A stretch of 64,000 nt of DNA, from positions 108,624,001 to 108,688,000 of the forward strand of contig OX597820.1 in the NCBI GenBank assembly GCA_951406725.2, in the 5' to 3' direction. The notes below the pieces were generated by a model. That model made no database searches, was not told where the DNA came from, and saw only the letters and a program-made list of their open reading frames with translations. Shown here piece by piece: positions 22,048 through 59,603 of this stretch; position 1 is the stretch's first letter; each line of letters starts with the position of its first letter. Made by a program: the position numbers and the translations under genes. The stretch is from Octopus vulgaris (lineage: Eukaryota).

Positions 22048-22799
22048 TCGACAGATTTCAAGTTAATTTGCCATCGATGATCCAGATGAGGCTAATCACT
22101 TTAAAGGCGAAGTGTTGTGTCGTATTATTTAAAAATGAGCACGAGCAATCATTTTCTGACGTATTCTTATCGAATAACTTTCTGCTTTTAGTCTAACTTA
22201 ATCAATTACCTTGCAATGTGTATATTTTCAGTTGGTACTACACTTAAGGCGGGGACTTCCAATTCTCGTTACTGATGAGGCATATTGTTGGTGTATAAAA
22301 TAAGTTGTAGTTATGGATGACAATTATGATATACATTTTCTTTGCCATTACAAATCTAATGAATCACTAACAATTTGAGATAAAACTGGATGTAAGTTTC
22401 CAGCAAGTCGATTCTGCAATCAGAACCTCTTTTTTGCTTTGCTTCTAAAATCCCATTGGGAAAGACATGAGTACCAAAATTTGTAAATTATCTTTCCCGT
22501 TTCTTCATGTCCAATTTTCATATTGGTCAAAGTTTGAAAAGTAGGTTCTATTAGTTGTGCCCCATCTACCTATTAAATCAAGAAGCCTTAGTATTACAAC
22601 TGCTTGATTAATGGCGTCTTAAATGAATATTAAAACTCATTTGAATTTTATAGAATTATAAATACAAATATTACGTAATTTGGCAATGTTCTAAGTTTCG
22701 AAGAACGTTCCAATCGCGTCGATTTTTTCTAATTAAAAAAAAAAATCTGTCGTAAGTTTACCATTTTTTTCCGCTTTCATATCTCAGTTTTGTTTTAAT

Positions 22800-23837
22800 T
22801 TATTTATTGTCATCTTCAATATTTAATATTCGCACCGTTCCCATTGCAACAGAATTAACTGTTTCGAATTCCGTTGTTCCAATAACCCGCTTATTTATTA
22901 TCTCACAAATCCAATACGAAGACATATTTTGAATGGGTTTGCATTCGAGGCAATATTTTTTACAGATTTCTAAAGAATCCGGTTTTAAATTTGGACGTGG
23001 AAGTTTAACAATTAAGCTTATGGTCATAGCAATTCCTAAATTACTGCAGCAAAAGTTTAAATAACCGAAAGTACCTTGAGCAAACATAACTTTTTTCTCA
23101 AGGGACTGCATCATCCGAACCAACTTCTTGTAAGCATCAGCTAACCGAGGTCCTTTCTCGGAGCAGAATATACGTAGATGATCTTCTTCGTTTACCCAGC
23201 ATACCAAATTTTTATCCAAGTTATAGTAAACACCTCTACCAGCTGGCCAATCATCGTAACAACCCGCTGCCTTTTTTAGTCTATTGGAATTGTCGAAATA
23301 TATGTTCTCGTTGATAAGATGTTTGCGATCTTCCGGTGAAATACCAACATACGAAAAATAGCGCCCCATAAGATCTCCTTCTAGGTTAGTTAAAGCTTCC
23401 ACGGCTAATTTCTCAATCTCTAAACGATCACCTTTGGTAAGAATTGGATGGTAACGGTAGCCATCGAAATTTCGACTGACATTAATATTAGAAGAAATTA
23501 CTTTATCTTTTGTAGATTCTAAAGCGAATAAATTAAGAAGATTCGGATCTCCGTAATCTGCTGATGGGTGGGTAAAAGCAGTCATATTATGGTATGCTTT
23601 GATAATCGGTTCGAAAATTTCGGCAAATGTTGTGTAGGCATTTTGGTCACATGCATAGATTCCAATAGAAATATTGGGATATTTGCAACCTACTCGGATA
23701 CAATCGTTTATTGTTCCTCCATATTTAGTCCTTTTGGATTTCAGATTTTCTAATTTTTCCGTATTGAGATGTATTTTTAGAAGAGAAGAACTTTGGGAAC
23801 AGGATAGTTTTTTCCATAAATGGTTCAATTCCGACAT
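22800..23837 (-). CDS. Intronless arginine kinase (phosphagen kinase)-like protein, 345 aa, probably catalytically impaired
   Basis: SLLK.HL, T..GGT..DCI, GIYACD..AY..FA..F.PII..YH, WP.GRG, WVNEEDHLRI, GYL.FC..NLG and NKR.IG.TE motifs. Continuous ATG-to-TAA ORF. Confidence 0.9.
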   Translation of the reverse strand: MSELNHLWKKLSCSQSSSLLKIHLNTEKLENLKSKRTKYGGTINDCIRVGCKYPNISIGIYACDQNAYTTFAEIFEPIIKAYHNMTAFTHPSADYGDPNLLNLFALESTKDKVISSNINVSRNFDGYRYHPILTKGDRLEIEKLAVEALTNLEGDLMGRYFSYVGISPEDRKHLINENIYFDNSNRLKKAAGCYDDWPAGRGVYYNLDKNLVCWVNEEDHLRIFCSEKGPRLADAYKKLVRMMQSLEKKVMFAQGTFGYLNFCCSNLGIAMTISLIVKLPRPNLKPDSLEICKKYCLECKPIQNMSSYWICEIINKRVIGTTEFETVNSVAMGTVRILNIEDDNK

Positions 23838-23950
23838 TGGGAAACCCGAAAGATGAGATACGAAAGTACGCCCCTATACCCTTTGCTTTATCATTGCGAT
23901 TTGTGAGTTTTCGGTAACATTTGTTAATTTGTAATAAGTAGAAATAAATT

Positions 23951-23960
23951 ATGACGTCAT
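23951..23960. promoter_or_regulatory. Perfect CRE palindrome (ATGACGTCAT) about 115 bp upstream of the AK-like ATG
   Basis: Motif seen directly; function is inferred. Confidence 0.4.
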
Positions 23961-24774
23961 GAAATATGATTCTGAATATGTTTACTTAAATCAAGGATCG
24001 GACAATGACAAGGGTCATCTCTTCTAACGAGAGTTGTATCTAATTTTGTTTATTAAACGAAGTTTTTACGTCAATAACAGAGGGCCTCACCACTCTCTCA
24101 CAATCTACCTAGCTAACTTCTTGTCTTATCTAACACTTTATATGATCATATATATCTATCTATCCTCTCTTACATCTATGTTATATTCTGAGACAGGGGC
24201 CAGTAAAGTGACCATATACAAATCACCATGTTTGTTTATGTTTCAATGATAATGAGCTCCCAAAACAACCATAAAAATGAATCAACTAGGAAATCTCTGT
24301 GTGGTCGCTCTAACAGTTAGGAATAGCAGTCAAGTCTCTTTCAAATGGCACTACCGTCTTACGAAAATAATGCATTGGGTAATATACACTTTGCTTTGGA
24401 TAGACTTCTCTTGGAACAACATTCTACCAACTCTGGTTTAATCACGACACTCTTTCTCTATATACTTCTGATAACGCCCATTCCTACACAGTTGTTCATT
24501 CCTTCCATACCTTGTGCATTAAGCGCCATTCACTTGCGCCTAGAAACCATACCTTGTGCATCCAAACACTATTCACTTACATCTAGATACTCCACCATGT
24601 GTATCTAAACGCTACTCACTTGCACCTAGACACCTTTCCTTGTGCATCCAAGAGCTGTTCATTTTCACCAAGACACCATACGCTAAATCTGTACTGACTC
24701 AACAAAGAGACCTCGTGGACATTTTCCAGTATAAGGTCACACTAATCTTATTCTCTTCCACAACATAAAGCTAC

Positions 24775-26163: not shown

Positions 26164-29100
26164 TTAGCCGGTGTACTCGACGTTGTCCGGGTGCGTTAGC
26201 TCGAAAAGGCTTAGAAACTAATAAAGCGATTAACACCCCTCTCCTCTAAGCACCTTTCACGCTTTATGGCAAGACTAACACCTAAGTAACTCTATAAGGG
26301 AATCGCACGTGTAATATTACAACAATTAAGTGAAAAAATAAAGCTACAAAAATTATAACAGCAATAACGTAGGACTGAAATATGGCGCCAGTACGGCAAG
26401 TCTACAAAACTTCCTTATAAACAACATTTTTAGTTTTCTCCTGGGGGATGAAGGCATGTAAACTGTTCCGACAACCCACTCTTGAGCAGCCAACGTACAG
26501 CTGACCGTGTGAAAAGCATGATTCGGCTAAGTAAAGTCCAACGACAGACAGCGACTGCCCCTGGGATTTATTAATGGACATGGCGTAACTGAGTCTAATC
26601 GGAATCTGCACTCTGCGAATGTGAACGTTAAGTTAGCAGCCGAAGGTACAAGGGGAATTCGCAGTATGAAGACGTCTTAACCTTTACCACAGATGGTCAT
26701 AATCGATGCTTCAATGACATTGGGAAGTAATTTTGTGATAACAAGGCGTGTACCGTTGCACAACGTCGATGGATTTAAATTCCTTATCAGCATAACAGGG
26801 CTACCTACTCGAAGAGTAAGAATATGTAGAGGTACATCTACAGGCTCCAAGGAATACAAAAATTCAGTGGGATAATCAACTACCTCATCCTGATTGGGAA
26901 TGGTGTCTACTGACTTATAGACTGTCACGTCCCCAGGCAAACGCAATAAGAGACTGTTGTTGATTGCACTGACCGCAACGTTTTTAGGAGCCAAAATGGC
27001 AAGGCCAATCTAGATCTCTGTTGTGGACTTCTAGGCCTGGGAAGACCCAGTCCTGAAGACTCTGGATACTACTGGCTATTGTGCAAATGTTACTTATGTC
27101 AGCATCTTCATTTCCGTCTTTTGGAACTTCACCTTTGCCAAGAAGGAAAATGTCCCTCGCGAAATCTTCTGACAATGGGTCCTCATGGAGGCGCGCTCTC
27201 ATGATGAATTCTAACTTTAAAGTAACAACATGACCCCATAGAGGCGAAGACTTAAGACACGCCATTACTTCATCCGCCCTTGTGCCTTTCGGAATCACTG
27301 GCAAGGCTTGTCTAAAGTTCTCAGATTGCAACACAGTGACACACCCAATCGGTTCATGGCTTTCTTTTATGTCTCGCAAAGTTCTATCTAATGCCAAACA
27401 ATCCCAAACAATCCCAAACAATCAGGCGGCATTGTGCGAGCAATTGCCCGTTTTATGCGACGTTTTTGAAACGTTGCAAACGGGCGTTGGTGAACTTGCA
27501 AGGTTAAGGGGAAGCTTAAACGTAGAGTGTGCAGTCCTACTACCAGGGAGCAGAGTAGCAGCTATGCCTGAAGTCGCCACAGCTATTGCGATGCACTTTT
27601 GTAGCCTTACTTTTGCAAGAATGAGTCTAGTTACGAATGTTTTGCCTGTCCCGCCAGGAGCGTTAAGGAAGAAAACGCCACCTTTACGACCCTGGACTTC
27701 TTGAACGATAGTGTCGTAGGCGTGCTTCTGGTCAGGTAGCAGGAATATCTCATTGATCTGTACATATGCGGATAGTTCAGTAATGTAAGATGTTTCCCGA
27801 ACAATCTCAGAAGGGAGATCATTTGAGGTAGGCTTTGCAGCGGTGGGGCAGTCCGTAAGTGGTCATTACGTCACCGCCTAAAGCTAAAGTCTTGTTTTCA
27901 AACTCAATCAGCGCTAGGTTGTATATTGTATCGGTAAAACCTATATTTAAAGTAAGGAATTGAAGCTGGGCGGCTCGCCTAAAGTCCTCAGAGAGGTCAT
28001 TCCTAAATCGAAGCTACAAAGAATACGGACTACTGGGTGCACAATTGTGCAGTATAACAGCAAAAAGTGTTCTAAGGTTTCCAAGCGATTTGGATACACA
28101 AGCTTCTGATAAGCAGGCTTGCCACTGCCCGTCATCTTTAAGAAGACCGCGCTGTTAACATGCCTCCTTGTATGTTGCAAAAACGTTTTCATCCACAGTT
28201 CTTAAATCCTGAAAGCAAATTGGTCCTGTTACTTCGTGTAGAAGAAGACGGAGATGAAAGCATTCAATCTGATTTGGGTGCACTGTATAAACGTACCCAA
28301 GGCAATCATTGAACTTAATACCTTCGTGCCCTTCAACAGTTTTATCTACCTTCCACGTCTTGTTCTAGGTGTAGTAGGATGGAACTTGTGGGTAAAGGAG
28401 TGTCCGTGCAAAAGGATCAACCTGACAAAGTTTAGAAAACGCAGTAAGCGTAGTATCTGATGGAGCTTGTGCTACCTGCGCAGCAGCGGCTTCACTGAAA
28501 TACACGCTTTGCCTGTTTTCCAGATGAACAGCAAGCTGGACAATGGCAGGATACCTTTCGTGCATTGGAAAACCGAAAATACGCCAAAACGCTTCATTGC
28601 TGCTTATGTACCGTGCAGCCTAGTATTGCATTACTTCATTGTGTTGGTTGATTCCTTGGAGGCCAAACATGGAGGCATTGGACCCTTTATTAACGTATTT
28701 GCGGATATTTGATTGATTTGATGGAGTTGCAAAATTTAACGTTTATATGCGCTTTAAATGTCTTTGAAAGAAGCGGACAGTAAGGTACTATCCATCTATT
28801 GTCAACTTCGAATTTCCCTATCGTTAAGCTTAAGCCTCCGTCGCATGGCTTCCTACACCTATACAGTGAGTACTTGTCTTGAGCAGTTTGAGTCTGAGAC
28901 ACGAATTTTGGGGGATAATTCTTTGAGTATACACCATTTATCAAGCAATCTTTCCTTGTGTAGGCAGGCCCACAAGGGCCATGGACCATATTAGACTTCA
29001 CTATGCCATGGATTTCACTATCAATGTCCGGATCAGGTATTTCAGCGGAAATTAGCCTGTCTGTCATTTGCATTTATTTTCTGACTTAACCACAGAAGTG

Positions 29101-30930
29101 TGTGTACATGAGGCATGCCCCTCTTTTACTACTCAACAGTGAACATGAAGCTTTTAACATGGCAAAATATTTGGCCATTGGTGAGGAGGTCCTTGAATTT
29201 AAGTAGTTTCAGTCTAAAAACTCTCGCAATGACATCAGGCCTATTATGGGCTTGTTGACCGGGCAGAAGACTCACTTGTATTTCATTCCCCTTGACATTA
29301 CAAGTGAGGGTAATGAAAAGGTCGGACCCACCGTAGTGCCGAACGTAAACCATGGCGTCTTGCATATGTTCGTGCATGTATCGAGGACTACCAATAAAGG
29401 AAGACGGGAGTATGCACAACTGGCCTATCCTTCTCGGGGCAACAACGTTAACGATGCTATCTCTGAGATGGATGTACTTTTCAGTCCGTAGCTTAGCCTG
29501 ATTCAACCGTATGTATTGTAAGCGCTGAGACTCAATCTTAACAGCATTGTCTACGACATGTTGAAAAAAGTCGCGAGAAAAGTGTAGGTGATTCAAACTG
29601 CTGTTTTTAACCATGTACCGATAGGTATAGTAAGCCATACATGTAACTGATTTGCTGTCACCAAAACCTGCCTCTGATAGGTTTTGCTGGGGAATGTTTA
29701 AGTGAAAACCGTCTTCACCATGAGTATGAAGTAGGGGATACTTAAGTGCGTCGTAGGACCTATGGGTTTCACAAATTCGTTGGAGCGCATCGTCTCGGCG
29801 GCACAAGACTATGTCCCTATTTTGGTGTTGTTCACCTCGAATAAGCACCGCAACCTCATTACATGAGTACTCGTTATAGCAGCGAGCGTGTTGCCCAGAA
29901 GACCTATGCCTATTTCTAAGGCATACTTAAAACTGTGAACATAGCTGTTTGTTTCGTGAATCAACTCCTGGAGCTGACGTATTAAGGCTAGGTCGGTACC
30001 AGGTAAGAAGGACTGCTGTCTGGCAGCCTGGTTTGCGTAGTCGCCAACGAAGTAAAGTTGTAGAAACTGAGACAAGACAGTATTGATTGGCTGGAGAGAA
30101 CCAAGCTTGTGATATATTTGTCCCTGAACTTTAAAAGACAGCATGAATTGTCCTTCTCTAATGATGTTAGACCCGAACGAAGTCATTTGGAAGGCACAGT
30201 TGTAGGCGCGAATGCGCTTAAGAAATTCGGTAGAGAAAGGCGAAACCCCAGTGAAAAGGTCAACCAAGAGACGGGGGGGGGATCTTCTAATGAAGGTATT
30301 TTAATCTTACCATTTGAGCAGTACGTGCCTGGGGTTTCCCCGGGCCACTTTTTGGTCTGACAAAAATCGCAGATCCTACTCATTGTGCTAATTGTAATGT
30401 CCGACCTGCTGCTGTAGTCGCAACTGGGATCGTAAGTGAAAGCTTTTAATGACCAAAACTTACTTGAGGGCCCTTGAAGTTGCAAATGTTATTCCTCCGC
30501 CGTTTCCCCGAACATTTTTTCAAAATCAATTTATACTTAAAACCTCCCCAGACACATAAGCAGTGTGCATGTGAAGTTTATATTTACTTGTTTAAGCGTT
30601 GTATTGGATAAATTGAGAAAATAACTAAAATAGTTCAAATATTAAGAAATAAGCATACTCAATTTCATTTTTACCAAATAATTTACGAAGGAGGGAATGG
30701 GTTATTTCCTCTGGAAGCTTTAAAATAATTAAGTCCGCCGTTCAACTGCGCCCAAATGTTATTCCTCCGCCGTTTACCCGAACATTTTTTCAAAATCAAT
30801 TTATACTTAAAATCTCCCCAGACACATAAGCAATGTGCGTGTGAGGTTTAAGAAAATTCAGTCGAGCCGTTTTGGCACAAAACGAGAACCCCCACCCCTA
30901 CACATACATTTTCAGTTTTAATATGTATGA
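26164..30930 (-). mobile_element. Decayed autonomous Helitron (RepHel with PIF1 helicase)
   Basis: Fragments C..C...KWPGE....C.NGK, IRAYN.AFQMTSFG, GSPRYM, HGPCG, DNRWIVPY, PGGTGKT, LCNGTRL and INKSQGQS. 5' A|TC at 30930; 3' hairpin plus CTAA|T at 26164. Many frameshifts. Confidence 0.9.
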
Positions 30931-35690: not shown

Positions 35691-36526
35691 ATGGAGCAGA
35701 ATATAAGAGAATTTGAGACGTCATATTTCGATAGAAATTACACACAAGCTTCTGTGAATGTATTAAATTGTCCTCCGTGGACTGGAGACACCGCAATTTG
35801 GTTAACACAACTGGAGGCAAGCTTTAAAGCTAATAAAATTGCAAGTGAAGAGCAAAAATACAATATAATGCTTAGCAATTTACCTCCACCTGTAAGTAAT
35901 GAAATTCGAGATTTGCTACTAAGCCCGATAGAACCAGTTTCCTATTCTTCAATTAAAGAGGAAATATTGAAACGAACATCAAATTCTAAACAAAAAGAGT
36001 TTGCGAAGTTATTCAACAATGAAGAGTTGGGTAATAAAAAACCCACACAACTTCTCCGAAGAATGAATGAGCTTCTGAGAGATCAGCAGATAGAAGAATC
36101 TTATCTCAAGGAAGTGTTTTTCAATAAATTGCCTCATAAAACTCAAACCTTGCTTTCGGCCGTAAAAAACCAAAACTCCATTAAACAGTTGGCAGATTTA
36201 GCAGACGGTATTCTGGAACTATCGTTCAAAGAAACTGTAAATGCAATACCTTCTATTTCGAATGAAATACAGGAATTAAAAAGTTGTTATGAAAAACAAA
36301 TTTGAATTATTGACAAAAAAAATTGAGAGTTTGCAACTCGAAAGGAACAGTCGCCCGGCTCAACAACAAAATGTAAGATGGCGCAGGAAATCGAGGAGCC
36401 CTAGTTTAAAAAGAAACGCCATCTGTTGGTACCATGCTAAATATGGAGACAAGTCACTCAAATGTATTAAACCTTGTGCATTTGATTTCCTTATTTAAAA
36501 AAAAGGAAAATTCGGGAAACTTCTAA
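35691..36526 (+). pseudogene. Gypsy gag (frameshifted)
   Basis: PPW..D...W..QLEA.F, LGNKKPTQLLRRM and CWYHAKYGDKSLKCIKPC; GGGAAAC slippery heptamer at 36514-36520. Confidence 0.85.
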
Positions 36527-36534
36527 ACCATAGA

Positions 36535-39500
36535 TTGGATGCGACGAAGTCTGTGGGTAACATTGTAAAAAGTCGCATGTTTTTCGTATACGACTTAACA
36601 TCAAAAGAAAGATTTCTCGTGGATACAGAAGCAGCATGTTCGATATGGCCTGTAAGGCTCTTAAAACAGAAAACCAAACCCGTGTATATGACTCTTCAGG
36701 CGGTGAATCAGTCTGAAATTCAAACGTTTGGAGAGATCAGCTTAACGCTGGACATAAATTTGCGAAGAGAATACAAATGGGTATTCATAGTAGCAGATTT
36801 ACCATATCCAATATTAGGAGTGGATTTTTTGGCGCACTATCATTTAATGGTAGACGTGAACAAACAAAAATTAATAGATACAGAAACTTCCCTAAAAATT
36901 CAGGGAATGAGATGCAGAAGAGCAACAATCAGTCCACTATATTTCATAGCGTCCACAGAAAATAAGTACCACAAGATTTTGGAAAACTATCCACAAATCA
37001 CGAAGCAGTTAACTCTGAATACCACGTGTACGCATTCAGTGACACATCACATCATCACACAAGGACCACCGAGTTTTTCTAAGCCGAGGAGATTATCGCC
37101 GGAGAAATTGAAGGTAGCTAAGGCGGAATTTCGGCATATGATGGATTTGGGTATAATCCGTCCTTCTAGTAGTAGCTGGTCAACACCATTAGTAATGGTA
37201 AAGAAAAACCTTATCGACTGGCGACCTTGTGGAGATTTCAGACAACTGAATGCGAAAACAAAGCCTGACAAATATCCAATACCCCACATAATGGATTTTG
37301 CGACTTCCTTGAGTTGTTGTACCATTTTTTCAAAGATAGATTTAGTCAGGGCATACAACCAAATTCCTGTGGCAGAAAACGATATACCGAAGACAGCCAT
37401 TACCACTCTATTTGGTTTGTTTGAATTTCTTCGCATGCCCTTCGGATTGAGGAATGCGGCAAATACTTTTCAAAGGTTCATGGATGAAGTAACACGAGAT
37501 TTACCTTTCGTGTTTGCTTATATAGACGATATTCTCATCGCTAGTCCATCGGAAGAAACACATGAAGAGCATTTTAAAAAAATCTTCGAAAGATTAACAA
37601 AATTTGGAATTGTGATAAACCCATCGAAATGTGTTTTTGGCGAAACGACCATATCCTTTTTGGGTCATCTTATCGATAAAGATGGAATTCTCCCATTACC
37701 AGAGAAAGTGGAAGCAATAAAAAACTTCCCAGTACCAAATAATTTAAAGAAGCTCAGAGGATTTTTAGGGATTGTCAATTTTTACAGAAAGTTCATTCCT
37801 AAAGTCACGGAAACCCTATATCCCTTAACTGAGCTATTGAAAAATAGAAAGAAAAAAAAACGAAGCCATAACCTTACAAGAACAGGAATTACAAGCCTTT
37901 CAAGGAATCAAAGAGAAGCTGTGTAAAGTAACGCTTTTAAACCACCCGGTTCCTGAAGCGAAATTATCATTGATGGTTGATGCTTCCGATGTTGGAATCG
38001 GTGGGGTTCTACAGCAATTTCATTGTGATTCCTGGCAACCATTGGCATTTTTTTCAAAAAAATTCAAGGCACCAGAAACTAAATACAGTGTGTTCGGCAG
38101 AGAATTGTTGGCAGCTTATTTGTCAATCAAACATTTCAGACACCTTCTTGAAGGTAGGTCATTTACTTTATTCACTGACCATAAACCGTTAACATATGCG
38201 TTGAAAAATTCTTCCGAAAAATATTCTCCTAGAGAAATTAGACACCTTGATTTTATTTCACAGTTTACTGTGGATATACGTTTTATCAAGGGGGAAAAAT
38301 ATAGCAGCAGATGCACTTTCTCGAATAAATGTAGACACATTAAGCTCAATAAGCACAATAAATTTGGAAGAAATGTCTAAGGATCAAGTTGCAGATAAAG
38401 AATTTTCTTCATATAAAAATTCCGATTCAACTGCTTTAAAATTTTAAATGTTGCTGATACATTCATGTAATTCACATATTTGGTGTGATATTTCTACAGG
38501 TTTTTCGAGACCATTTGTGCCTGAAAAGCATAGAAAAAATGTTTTTTCTAGCCTACATAATTTATATCATCCAGGTATAGAAGCTTCGTTGAAGTTAGTA
38601 TCAAACCGTTTTGTTTGGCCTGGTATGAATAAGGATATTCGTTCGTGGGTCAAAGCATGTATGCAATGTCAGAAATCTAAAGTGCAGCGGCACATCAAAG
38701 CACCGTTAGGCACATTTGCAAATCCGGATGCGAGATTCCAACACATCCACATCGATATAGTGGGACCCTTGCCTCCATGCGATGATAATATGTATTTGTT
38801 GACGTGTGTAGACCGTTTTTCCAGATGGCCCGAGGCTTATCCGATAAAGGATGTATCTGCAGTAAATATAGCAAAAACTTTGTTTACCAATTGGATGTCT
38901 AGATTCGGCATTCCAAATACAGTGACAACAGATCGTGGTAGACAATTTGAGTCTAGCTTATTCGCAGAATTCAATAAATTGTTGGGAATTAATAGAATTC
39001 GTACAACTTCATATCACCCACAATCTAACGGAATGGTAGAAAGGTTCCATAGACAGTTGAAAGCTTCATTACGAACTTATTCTAATTCTAACGATTGGCT
39101 AGAGGCATTGCCAGTGGTATTGTTGGGAATTAGAAGTGCGGTTAAAGAAACTATACAGTATTCTCCGGCTGAACTTTTGTACGGAACAACGTTAACTTTA
39201 CCTGCTCAAATGTTCGAAGAAACTAATTTTTTCGACGGAGATGTTAATGACTGTGTAACTCGTCTAAAAAGATTTCTTACGGATATTCCTTCTTGTACAA
39301 GAAAATTGCAAAATGTTAAAAGTTTTCTTCTTTCGGATATAAAATCTTGGACACATGTGTATGTCCGTAACGATGCAGCTCATAATTCGCTGAAATATAA
39401 ATACACCGGACCTTTTAAAGTCTTGTCGGTTACAGACAAAACTATGACTCTGGAGATGAATGGAAAGAAAGAAATTGTCAGTGTCGACAGAGTAAAAAAA

Positions 39501-39707
39501 GCTTATTTCGACCATTATCCATGTCATGAAACCAGAGATATGAGCAACACACATCAACACAACTTGAAACAAAAAAATGATATAGATAACAACAAATCCG
39601 ATTTTGAGGGAAAAGCGAAATCGATTCTAAAATCACCTACAAATGTAAAAAAAACTATAAGTGGTAGAACTGTACACTTTCCCAAAAAATTTTCTCAGTT
39701 TGTTTGA
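36535..39707 (+). pseudogene. Gypsy pol (PR-RT-RH-IN) with frameshifts and one stop
   Basis: FLVDTEA (protease DTG changed to DTE), RT YIDD, RNase H DAS...TDHKPL, integrase HHCC plus HIDIVGP/TDRG/NGMVER, GPF motif. Confidence 0.92.
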
Positions 39708-40853: not shown

Positions 40854-42393
40854 TTGTTCATCCTCCCTTTGGGGGGAAGAATGTCGTCTAGCAAGGAGCC
40901 TACCGTTGGAGCAGAAATATTTGTTTCTCCTGTTGAGAGGAGGAAATACATGTCCGGTGAGGAGCCAACTACAGACAGGGAAATAAGGGTTTCCCCCGCT
41001 ACAAGAAGGAATAGCAGAATGGATAATATTTTTGATTTTTTTGGAGATGTGTCTGAAAGCTCGTCAGAACTTTCACCAGAAGAGTTTCCGATTTTGCCAG
41101 AGAACAAGGGCATTGTGTCGAAAAGAATGATTGATGTACCTAACATCCAGACAGAACCAAAAAATGGGAAAAAAAGTTTTGCGTTGGCAGCTGGGGGTGG
41201 AACTCGGCTGCTTTCGACGAATAAGAGCGACTTTATGAAATACAGCCAAATGATGAAAATAACTGACAACGTTGTGAAAATTGAACCTCCAGAAAAGTTA
41301 CTACAAGAAGAAAAACAAAAAACAATAATTTTCAAAACATATTGTTTACAAAAAAGAAAAACTGAAAGAATGTCAGAAGAGAAAATAGAAAAGTGCTTAA
41401 AGCCAATATGGGGCGACGTAGTTTATCTGAGAAGAGGCAAGAAATTCGGAACGGTGCAAGTAAAGTTCACCAAGAAAGAAATAGCACAAAATAACTCAGT
41501 AGAAACGCTGAAAACGAACGACGTAGAGCTCATTCCCACCTATATGGGGATGAGAACGTCCAGTATTAAAATTACAAGGGTCCCACCGGAAGTGGACCCT
41601 ATGTGGTTGTTGGCGGCAGTCCTAATCAAAGAGGAAGAAAAAATTACTCTCCTCCAGGCTACCGCTACCGAAAACGCACATTGGGATGGTCAAACAATTA
41701 ATCTCCTCATTCAAACGGACCCTAAAATAATTCAAGCAATTCCCGAGACAATTGAGGTAGGGGAGGAGAACATCGTGGTGTTTGTTGAAGGCCGAAAACC
41801 TCGATGTTTTTTATGTGGTCAATTAGGCCACATTCGAAGGAACTGCAAGGAAAATGAGGAAGAGGAGAAAAAAGACAAAGAGGAAGAAGAAAAATGTGAG
41901 AAAAAAACAACAAACAAAAGGAAAATACAACCAGCAACTCAACCGAGAGCGGCGACTACTACAGAACAACGACCAAAAAAGACTGCCAGAAGAGAAAAAG
42001 AAGAAAAGGGCATAATAGCCGTATGCACTAAAGATACTGAGCAAACGAGAGACATTCAACTGATAAAGACTGTAAAAAAAATTAGATAACCTTTCAGAGG
42101 AATTTATCAATTACGACGTATATGAAATCTCAAATAAGACTCATAGAATTTTACAAAACAAATACAGAAAGACAGTATCTTCGATGAAATTAGATTTTTG
42201 CAAGTCGATATTTCATGGATTACCAGCCCCGATCCCGCGAGAAAAGGAAAAGGTGGAGACTCCCCCTCCACCTGATAATTCTGTGTCGGTGGTGAGACGG
42301 GATTTTGACAAATCTATTTCCAAAGACCGTCCACCTCCGACCCTGGATCAAAAAAAGGTGGAAGGTCCCCCTCCTCCGGACCATTCTGATTAA
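40854..42393 (+). pseudogene. Tx1 ORF1 (CCHC zinc knuckle) with one frameshift in an A-run near 42080
   Basis: CFLCGQLGHIRRNC; the reading frame resumes into ORF 42184-42393. Confidence 0.8.
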
Positions 42394-42404
42394 ACAGGTA
42401 AGTC

Positions 42405-43720
42405 ATGTCTATTCACATTGGTTGTATAAATGTTCGTGGCCTGATGTCAAGCTGGAAGCAAGGACGCTTTCTAAATGACATCAGGTCGAGAAATTTGGAT
42501 GTAATTGTTGCAACGGAAACCTGGGTGAAGGGGCTAAGAGATCTACTCCCCCTCCTGAACGGCTACGAGAAATACGTTTCTCCGAGCCGGGCGAGAGGTG
42601 GGGGTGGGGTGTTGGTTCTACTAAAAAGAAACCGGGTAGCCGAGAAAAAGTTGTTTTTTTCTGACCTAGAAGGCAGGTTGGTCGGAGGTGGCCAATGTGT
42701 TTATCACATCTGTCATTACCTACCGCCTGATCGTCGTGCCCTGTCCGGATTCGTGGTTGATCAGGTTGGAGAGACAGCTCTTTCGCTTTTTGTGCAAGGG
42801 CAGGTCGCCACTTGTGAAACGCTCTGTCTGCTGTCAAAAGCCTTTAAAGGGAGGTTTAGGGATGCCTTGGTTAATGATGCGCAGACATGCGTTGAGGTTG
42901 AGGCACCTCTGGATTCTCCTGGATAGTGAACGGGTGTGGTCTCCGCTAGCCAGACAAATGTTCCCTGAGTTCAAGAGTTTTGGCGAACAGGAAGCCTGGT
43001 GTTCTCGTAGACCGAGGTCGAGTGAGTGGCATAGAGTGCCGTAAGGCCCTCTTGCTGTTCCGGCGCTCGGGCAACGCCAGCGGTGGGTCTTCCACACGGA
43101 TTTTATATAGTGGGTTGGTAGAGTCTGAATGCGACGATGGCCTGGGGTCGACTCTAGGTCTCGGATTTATTCAACTGGACAGTTTGTTTCATCGTACATT
43201 CGGGTTGAGAACGTTGGACAACTTCCAAAAGTCCTTAACCTGGCAATGCTACAGAGGTGCCTTGCCCGTTTGGGATAAGCTCGCAAGACCAAGACATGGT
43301 AAACGTCAGCCGCCGACATGTCCAAGATGCGGGGAGGACAGGGAAACCATCCCTCACGCTATTGTTCAGTGTCCGGAGATAACTGAAATGTGGGCTTATG
43401 CTGAACACCTGTTGTCCAGCGAAGGAAGAGTACAGCTGTCGACTGAGTCAATTATAAAAATTAACCCACTGGGAGTTCTAACGAACGAAGGTAAGAATTG
43501 TTTTCTCACTGTTGTAGCAATAGCAAAAGAGACAGTATGGAAAACTAGGATAAAAGGAATTAAGACAGGCAACTTTATTTCTGGCCACAATTTACGATCT
43601 TTTTTTTCTTTTCATTTGAAAAGGAAACTGTGGCTGGAGAAGAGGTGTCTGTCGGAGTGTACGTTCCAAAAGAGATGGAAGCATGTTGTACGAGTGTTGT
43701 GCGTGCAAGGAACCGTGTGA
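42405..43720 (+). pseudogene. Tx1 ORF2 remnant: APE endonuclease N-terminus fused to the post-RT region and C-terminal zinc motif
   Basis: IGCINVRGL...ET...EGRLV joined at about 42685 to ANVFITSVITYRL...KGGLGMP...CPRC...ETIPHAIVQC. Confidence 0.85.
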
Positions 43721-59483: not shown

Positions 59484-59603
59484 ATGGCGCCAAAACAGAA
59501 AAACGCACGCGACGAACTCAAACAAGAAGATATACTTCAAGCTGTTTTGCTTGCTGATAGTTTTAATTACAGATTTTCACCAATTACAGAAGAAGTACCC
59601 CGG
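59484..59603 (+). CDS. EIF2B5: Translation initiation factor eIF2B epsilon subunit, first coding exon
   Basis: MAPK...LQAVLLADSFNYRFSPITEEVPR matches the eIF2B-epsilon N-terminal motif (LQAV..ADSF..RF.P.....PR). Phase-0 GT donor at 59604. No later exons seen in the window. Confidence 0.88.

Follow-up and report, generated by a model that had tools for sequence, protein, structure and literature searches.

Phosphagen kinases are generally regarded as energy buffers that are all catalytically active. In arginine kinase (AK), S122, H185, H284 and the arginines R124, R126, R229 and R280 have described roles in nucleotide binding (PMC12467219), H284 is also discussed in PMC8839106, and roles are given for the five arginines, E314, the 62-68 loop and the signature CP(S/T)N(I/L)GT in the available text of PMC11492440. 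The same source reports that Nautilus AK is nearly inactivated by S63T and weakened by D62G. Secondary AKs include some that are weak or sperm-associated (PMC7603314, PMC9934393), and AKs are described as abundant or specialised in sperm in the available part of PMC9934393. Our searches of the openly accessible literature found no description of a naturally dead phosphagen kinase, no AK retrogene in testis and no account of the gene or accessions considered here.

That gene lies in the window, by which we mean the whole 64,000-nucleotide stretch of Octopus vulgaris contig OX597820.1 that was analysed (positions 108,624,001 to 108,688,000). The sequence-only reading had recognised an unbroken 345-codon AK paralogue, and this was borne out by a stop-free frame on the minus strand (Table 1). 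Its product, P0001, has both phosphagen-kinase Pfam domains well over cut-off (PF02807, residues 14-80, E 7e-19; PF00217, residues 140-342, E 1e-38). An AlphaFold2 model based on an alignment of 125 sequences has a mean pLDDT of 94.3 and superposes on solved AKs with TM scores of 0.91 for open and 0.85 for closed forms. The domains and the confident model agree with the earlier claim that the fold is kept, and P0001 is predicted to have the helical N-terminal domain and the C-terminal catalytic domain that define the phosphagen-kinase fold family; since the alignment behind the model consists mostly of active AKs, the model speaks for compatibility with the fold and for nothing beyond it. Hydropathy gave no signal peptide or membrane span in P0001, a hidden N-terminal presequence is ruled out by an in-frame stop 13 codons upstream of the ATG, and a search of the ESM Atlas returned ordinary AK and CK clusters only. 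The gene had been described as sitting among decayed transposons, which holds for about 6-7 of the 15 other window ORFs that were scanned, with Pfam matches that include Helitron, RT, RNase H, integrase, zinc knuckle and endonuclease as well as DUF7041; the remaining ORFs have no match. Microsatellites as well as transposon remains surround the gene.

Table 1. Positions of features of the AK-like gene and its surroundings, numbered from the first letter of the window
Feature	Position	Strand	Basis or remark
Putative 3' UTR	22587..22799	-	contig cover reaches 22587-22751, depending on the run
Single-exon ORF, 345-aa AK-like protein P0001	22800..23837	-	no internal stop
Short lid loop ECKPIQNMSSYW: R309K, E314/H315 absent, 3-residue deletion	22911..22946	-	alignment
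AMTISLI: R280T, H284I	23010..23030	-	alignment
CP(S/T)N(I/L)GT changed to CCSNLGI, C271 kept	23031..23051	-	signature as given in the available text of PMC11492440
NEEDHLR kept (E225, R229), protein residues 216-222	23172..23192	-	alignment
H185N, adenine-ring contact gone	23304..23306	-	alignment; role as given in the available text of PMC12467219
SSNIN: R124N and R126N, same in 6/6 family members	23481..23495	-	alignment
Guanidino-specificity loop DSG changed to NIS (D62N, S63I, G64S)	23667..23675	-	alignment
Putative 5' UTR	23838..23904	-	X1 and X2 contigs both stop at 23904
Six-codon upstream ORF, in frame, in putative 5' UTR	23874..23894	-	stops 13 codons before the main ATG
CRE palindrome TGACGTCA	23952..23959	.	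115 bases upstream of the ATG; ~48 upstream of the 5' end set by the contigs
Second CRE-like site TTACGTCA	24066..24073		
43-base tandem units, three to four	24505..24676		~600 bases above the gene
Helitron fragment	28690..30186	-	
LTR-retrotransposon	35691..39707	+	gag-like, RT, RNase H and integrase pieces in separate frames
Non-LTR element	40881..43720	+	zinc-knuckle ORF1 and endonuclease piece
Probable eIF2B epsilon first exon	59484..59603	+	best PDB match E 5e-4; possible synteny marker

Is P0001 an active enzyme? Residues were numbered as in Limulus AK by counting on an alignment with 4bhl and the arthropod AK P0100, in which all named sites match. The alignment confirmed most of the replacements that had been called by eye, namely STRVR to SSNIN with loss of R124 and R126, TMRASVH to AMTISLI with loss of R280 and H284, H185 to N, and the DSG guanidino loop to NIS, and it confirmed that NEEDHLR is kept. 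For the lid loop, R309K, the shortening and the loss of E314 all stand, but the canonical sequence had been given as QVRGTRGEH, which is the arthropod form, and the cephalopod parent reads ARGIHGEH. The assertion that only R229 and C271 remain proved too strong, as E224, E225, D226, S122, Y68, R193, W221 and N274 are also kept. Conversely, the alignment added R330V, D192N, M233S, P272C and D324E to the list of losses, the first of which we take to be an active-site loss. The phosphate-binding arginines at 124, 126, 229, 280 and 309 are thus N, N, R, T and K in P0001. The adenine contacts have been reduced to S122, with H185N and H284I, and the D62-R193 pair has become D62N with R193 kept, together with the loop residue Y68. 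Compared with an active AK, P0001 departs in the arginine set, the adenine contacts, the guanidino loop, the signature and the lid loop, and agrees in having the NEED motif with E225.

These positions are rarely altered elsewhere. From 296 proteins we aligned the 258 of 300-480 amino acids, with four McsB-like proteins omitted. Among the 252 phosphagen kinases outside the octopod family, R124 is present in 248, R126 in 249, R280 in 250, R309 and R330 in 251 each, H185 in 248 and H284 in 246. None of the 252 has N at 124 or 126, and all six octopod family members have N124, N126 and N185. Where conservation reaches 95% or more among 203 intact AKs, P0001 keeps 8/23 columns in the pocket versus 46/73 elsewhere (Fisher p 0.029, with a pocket list of our own choosing), and the number of R or K residues in the pocket falls from 6 to 2. 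With four of the five arginines that bind phosphate lost at once, along with the two histidines that contact adenine, the glutamate of the lid and the guanidino loop, P0001 very probably cannot carry out ATP-arginine phosphotransfer, a prediction drawn from aligned residues. The retention of E225, R229, C271, Y68, R193, S122 and W221 leaves room for ligand binding or other chemistry.

One possibility is that the protein is a regulatory pseudoenzyme, which would tune the phosphagen shuttle either by binding arginine or phosphoarginine or by docking on canonical AK or one of its partners. In the Octopus members the nucleotide side of the site is stripped and E225, C271, N274, Y68, R193 and R229 are kept, and NEEDH is almost invariant across the octopod family. 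However, S63I, D62N and the loss of E314 should spoil arginine binding, E225 has become A in the Argonauta protein P0002 and Y68 has become F in the Argonauta copies, and the retained residues may be structural; we regard such a role as unlikely. An alternative is that the enzyme has been re-tooled for a new substrate or chemistry through C271, E225, R229 and new invariant cysteines at 193, 225 and 299. N117, N119, N178, C193, C225, C299 and W309 (P0001 numbering) are fixed in 6/6 family members and absent from intact AKs. Newly fixed residues are not enriched in the pocket, with 6/17 of the changed non-gap pocket columns against 69/197 overall, and since fixation there matches the background it lends no support to new chemistry. 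Moreover, no phosphate-binding cluster remains and the model fits the open AK forms better than the closed ones (0.91 versus 0.85), so a re-tooled enzyme appears more improbable still.

The gene is intact, conserved and under purifying selection. Octopus bimaculoides has an intact orthologue, P0048, with 97% identity to P0001; the orthologues P0049 and P0050, also intact, have 90% and 89% identity, and Argonauta hians has two intact orthologues on separate contigs, P0002 and P0003, with 59% and 60%. The mutual identity of the two Argonauta proteins is only 62%. The short lid loop is common to all six family members, which have 11-13 cysteines, compared with 5-8 in canonical cephalopod AKs. Contigs from sequencing run X1 differ from the P0001 gene by 11 amino-acid and 13 silent changes, giving a dN/dS of 0.24-0.33, the range reflecting the site model (p 0.0007-0.007 versus neutrality), and the amino-acid changes coincide with the 11 differences between P0048 and P0001. 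Run X2 has at least 7 amino-acid and at least 15 silent differences, and no indels inside the frame are listed for the four runs X1, X2, X7 and X16. In the searches that we ran, which were not exhaustive, no squid, cuttlefish or nautilus orthologue was found, and a profile search of 50%-cluster representatives returned no additional member of the octopod family.

A simpler explanation would be that the gene is a processed pseudogene whose frame has stayed open by chance. It is intronless, lies amid transposon remains and has a degraded active site, and a genuine processed AK pseudogene is present on contig C5. On the other hand, dN/dS is well below 1, the frame is intact in five other records down to 59% identity, structural columns have been preferentially kept, and synonymous change relative to the canonical AK gene is near saturation (16/51 four-fold sites identical) with no stops, where a rough estimate for a neutral frame is about 51. 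The low dN/dS and the stop-free frame effectively refute the pseudogene, which we consider extremely improbable, and they uphold the earlier suggestion of selection despite strong divergence, as the orthologues are undisrupted and have the same losses. The gene has nevertheless changed quickly: past residue 50, P0001 and P0048 differ at 9/295 sites and the canonical pair at 3/298, and P0001 differs from the Argonauta copies at 38-42% of sites compared with 9.7% for the canonical pair, so that the evolutionary rate of the degenerate octopod gene is about 3-4 times that of canonical AK. Catalytic residues are gone across the orthologues and the predicted fold is conserved, as in other pseudoenzymes, and judged from these sequences the octopod gene is in all likelihood a real pseudoenzyme.

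Where did the gene come from? The 2.8-Gb octopus genome has three AK loci, which are the window copy on contig C7, the canonical gene on C3 and the decayed copy on C5, and the degenerate gene is present in a single copy. The canonical gene is split by five introns and can start with either of two first exons (1a or 1b), which match Octopus vulgaris proteins at 100%. The frame in the window runs uninterrupted across all five canonical intron positions (0/5 introns). The two first exons are duplicated alternatives (L015 and L008; G000:C3:151669600-151669752 and 151677972-151678268). Exon 1b adds a basic, acid-free extension of 49 residues that we infer to be mitochondrial presequence-like; both first-exon forms also occur in Sepia, and a 1b-type extension occurs in a squid-like record. 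The N-terminus of P0001 matches exon 1b at 27/50 positions and exon 1a at 23/50, and the protein starts at the same methionine, without the extension. This likeness may, however, be ancestral, as a tryptophan is shared by limpet AKs.

The lack of the parent's introns, the location on another contig and a frame under purifying selection are the features expected of a functional retrogene, and the missing five introns together with the likeness to an alternative first exon make a retrogene probable. Neither a poly(A) tail nor a target-site duplication could be seen, and remnants of them would not be expected to outlast synonymous saturation. The decayed C5 copy is also intronless; over 584 nt it is 87% identical to the canonical gene's spliced sequence, and it matches exon 1b (88% over 130 nt) better than exon 1a (71% over 65). 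This pseudogene (L011:4961-5536, minus strand) is younger, with stops and frameshifts, and P0215, a 158-aa piece of it, carries an arginine kinase annotation. Because a retrocopy has to arise in the germ line to be inherited, the exon-1b mRNA is probably a germ-line transcript. From the sequence comparisons, the likely origin is retroposition of the exon-1b mRNA of the coleoid AK gene in an ancestor of the coleoids or of the octopods.

The trees are divided on this parentage. With intact AKs only, the octopod family groups with coleoid AKs (100/99) on a very long stem. Once three degenerate proteins are added, it joins those in 575-583 of 1000 bootstraps and coleoid AKs in 265, with a long-branch warning flagged; a coleoid origin is not rejected in that tree (AU p 0.39). 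In another comparison, octopod and decapod sisterhood could not be told apart (AU p 0.41). The earlier argument from intronlessness to a retrogene therefore holds as to the missing introns, and descent from a coleoid parent is only probable; likewise, the tree check that had been proposed gave the cephalopod grouping with intact AKs and lost it when long branches were included.

It is possible instead that the gene belongs to an old degenerate molluscan AK lineage, represented by P0348 of the snail Bulinus and P0390, and lost its introns separately. Grouping of the family with P0348 and P0390 has 575 of 1000 bootstraps behind it, and a value of 88 in a quick tree, and N185, L279, E312 and other states are common to them; P0390 shares 14/47 of the rare states fixed in the family. 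Yet that grouping is flagged as long branches meeting, the lid loops are unlike in length and sequence, and the searches that we ran returned no squid, cuttlefish or nautilus member. The identity of P0001 is highest to coleoid AK (42.5%, versus 38% to other molluscs and 30-34% to the degenerate proteins), and of 17 coleoid-diagnostic columns four have the coleoid state and one the state of other molluscs. C213 and M271 are kept in P0001 and occur in 0/46 non-cephalopod mollusc AKs. Snail AK genes carry introns, according to the available text of PMC11761897. We consider this origin rather unlikely, and it is compatible with every functional reading.

Hints of transcription come from contigs of 4 of the 24 listed runs (X1, X2, X7 and X16), which were compared with the window; the assemblies of X1, X2 and X16 comprise 11-62 million letters. 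X1 covers 22661-23904, X2 22751-23904 and X16 22587-23876, and X7 has two short pieces. The X1 and X2 contigs, from two studies, end at the identical base with no loose end there. Contig depth, a poor measure, is 331 for X16, 183 for X1, 35 for X2 and 3-5 for X7. The interval 23914-24600 is covered by the contigs of none of the four runs, an absence that is uninformative by itself. In three of the four runs the contigs of these small assemblies span the ORF and stop at its flanks, a weak hint of transcription, the RNA status of the runs being a guess. There is no AATAAA within 500 bases at the 3' side of the gene.

The sequence-only reading also pointed to a perfect CRE about 115 bp upstream. 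Its position is correct and it is the sole one in the window, but alone it is weak evidence, since shuffling the window produced at least one CRE in 43 of 100 trials and the motif was singled out only after inspection. About 0.004 are expected per given 300 bases. CREM-driven spermatid promoters of mammals have a similar CRE arrangement. No CRE was found near either first exon of canonical AK or near the C5 copy. An intact intronless PGK, in which a testis gene could have been checked for a CRE, was not found. An intronless PGK fragment with three stops (L016; G000:C10:18085508-18085939) is probably a processed pseudogene.

How might a dead AK be used? The course of events that we tentatively favor begins with an exon-1b germ-line mRNA that would have been retroposed as an intronless copy from which the presequence was dropped. 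Having lost the presequence, and with no signal or membrane span, the copy would be cytosolic. Stripping of the nucleotide pocket with retention of the fold would leave a protein that folds and no longer performs phosphotransfer, and this dead AK fold may have a structural or scaffolding use in spermatids or sperm. The sperm reading draws on indirect clues, namely the germ-line origin, the fast evolution, the CRE and an analogy with proteins of cilia and sperm. A structural use in germ line or sperm has at best about an even chance of being right, and the whole reading, of a maintained intronless dead AK copy with a structural or scaffold role in male germ cells or sperm, falls just short of that. 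The available supplements of two studies of octopus reproductive tissue (PMC8976471, PMC6341066) gave no match for AK, and that of a third (PMC11202624) has one AK GO row, with 1 gene annotated and 1 significant, neither the gene nor the direction of change being given.

A dead enzyme could also have been kept as a bulk structural protein of somatic tissue, whether a crystallin of lens or cornea or a protein of gland or skin. The stable predicted fold is kept, the cysteine content is raised, and contig depth, poor measure though it is, is very uneven between runs. Cephalopod crystallins include S-crystallin, derived from GST, and omega-crystallin, derived from ALDH, and the S-crystallins have expanded. 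The gene described here is single-copy, unlike those expansions, no clue to a lens or crystallin use emerged, and the germ-line clues point to testis, so we judge a somatic role unlikely, if slightly less so than the regulatory role discussed above.

The germ-line and sperm reading gains a possible parallel from a wider set of degenerate phosphagen kinases. In a profile search of 50%-cluster representatives, the best 150 proteins yielded 291 domains, of which the 244 with residues in five or more of the six core-arginine columns were scored. Two or more core arginines were lost in 159 of the 244 (85 proteins, P0003 among them), in a sample of representatives that is biased toward divergent sequences and may include some faulty predictions. 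Ten of the degenerate proteins were looked up, and four of these have a named source: two are beetle proteins, one belongs to the snail Bulinus and one to the alga Mallomonas. Some are fused to PH, Ras or RIIa-like modules, and on a quick tree they are scattered over several places. Proteins in the series P0297-P0443 (e.g., P0299, P0301, P0303, P0311, P0319 and P0329) have 2-4 tandem domains with the core arginines nearly all lost. Single-domain degenerate AKs occur in insects and a snail (P0412, P0424, P0407, P0369, P0379, P0436, P0348 and P0390). The N-terminus of P0412 matches the flagellar chain 7som_T (E 8e-8), and the start of P0424 resembles by eye the N-terminal module of P0412. Multi-domain mollusc AKs were considered as a precedent and set aside, a core arginine being changed in only 1 of 48 aligned stretches.

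Judged from their sequences, dead phosphagen-kinase folds thus appear to be a widespread and recurrent phenomenon, with cases in beetles, a snail and an alga. Their recurrence makes the octopod gene less unique, and cilia and sperm provide the sole functional analogy that we found. It is conceivable that octopods, beetles, flies, a snail and algae have repeatedly given rise to a so far undescribed class of dead structural proteins in sperm tails and cilia, and that the octopod protein is a retrogene-derived member with an emptied nucleotide cleft that docks a flagellar or midpiece partner, a doubtful extension that is drawn by analogy.

Set against the Limulus and Litopenaeus AK structures (1BG0, 1M15, 3M10 and 4BHL), with which the P0001 model has TM scores of 0.85-0.91, most of the nucleotide and substrate contacts described in the available texts of PMC12467219 and PMC11492440 are missing. 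Like Tribolium TcAK2 and the sperm AKs of Culex and horseshoe crab, as described in the available parts of PMC7603314 and PMC9934393, P0001 is a secondary paralogue. Insect group 2 AKs are reported to be active when measured, at about 33-fold lower efficiency, whereas the octopod protein is without the arginine cluster. The degenerate proteins of Bulinus (P0348), Ceutorhynchus (P0369), Agrilus (P0379) and Mallomonas (P0299) share the fold and have also lost several core arginines; they have 23-36% identity to the octopod protein, differ from it in the replacement residues, and often consist of several domains or carry a PH, Ras or docking module.

The nearest described system is cephalopod AK itself (EC 2.7.3.3; Oct f 2; P0173, P0263 and P0266), with which P0001 shares domains, length, predicted fold, 41-44% identity, NEEDHLR, C271 and W221. 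It differs in being intronless, on another contig, faster in evolution and richer in cysteines, with a broken signature and changes at R124, R126, R280, R309, R330, H185, H284, E314, S63 and D62. Databases label the octopod orthologues 'arginine kinase Oct f 2(-like)', and records under that name therefore include a protein predicted to be inactive. Enzyme-derived pseudoenzymes and retrogenes are already familiar, which limits the surprise; the gene has nevertheless led to a wider and apparently unnoticed set of degenerate phosphagen kinases. It is also a small, single-exon case open to experiment, and as the active parent sits in the same genome, loss of catalysis and gain of a new role can be compared directly. 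With the cephalopod enzyme-crystallins it shares an enzyme fold kept after activity was lost, as predicted here for a gene that is single-copy.
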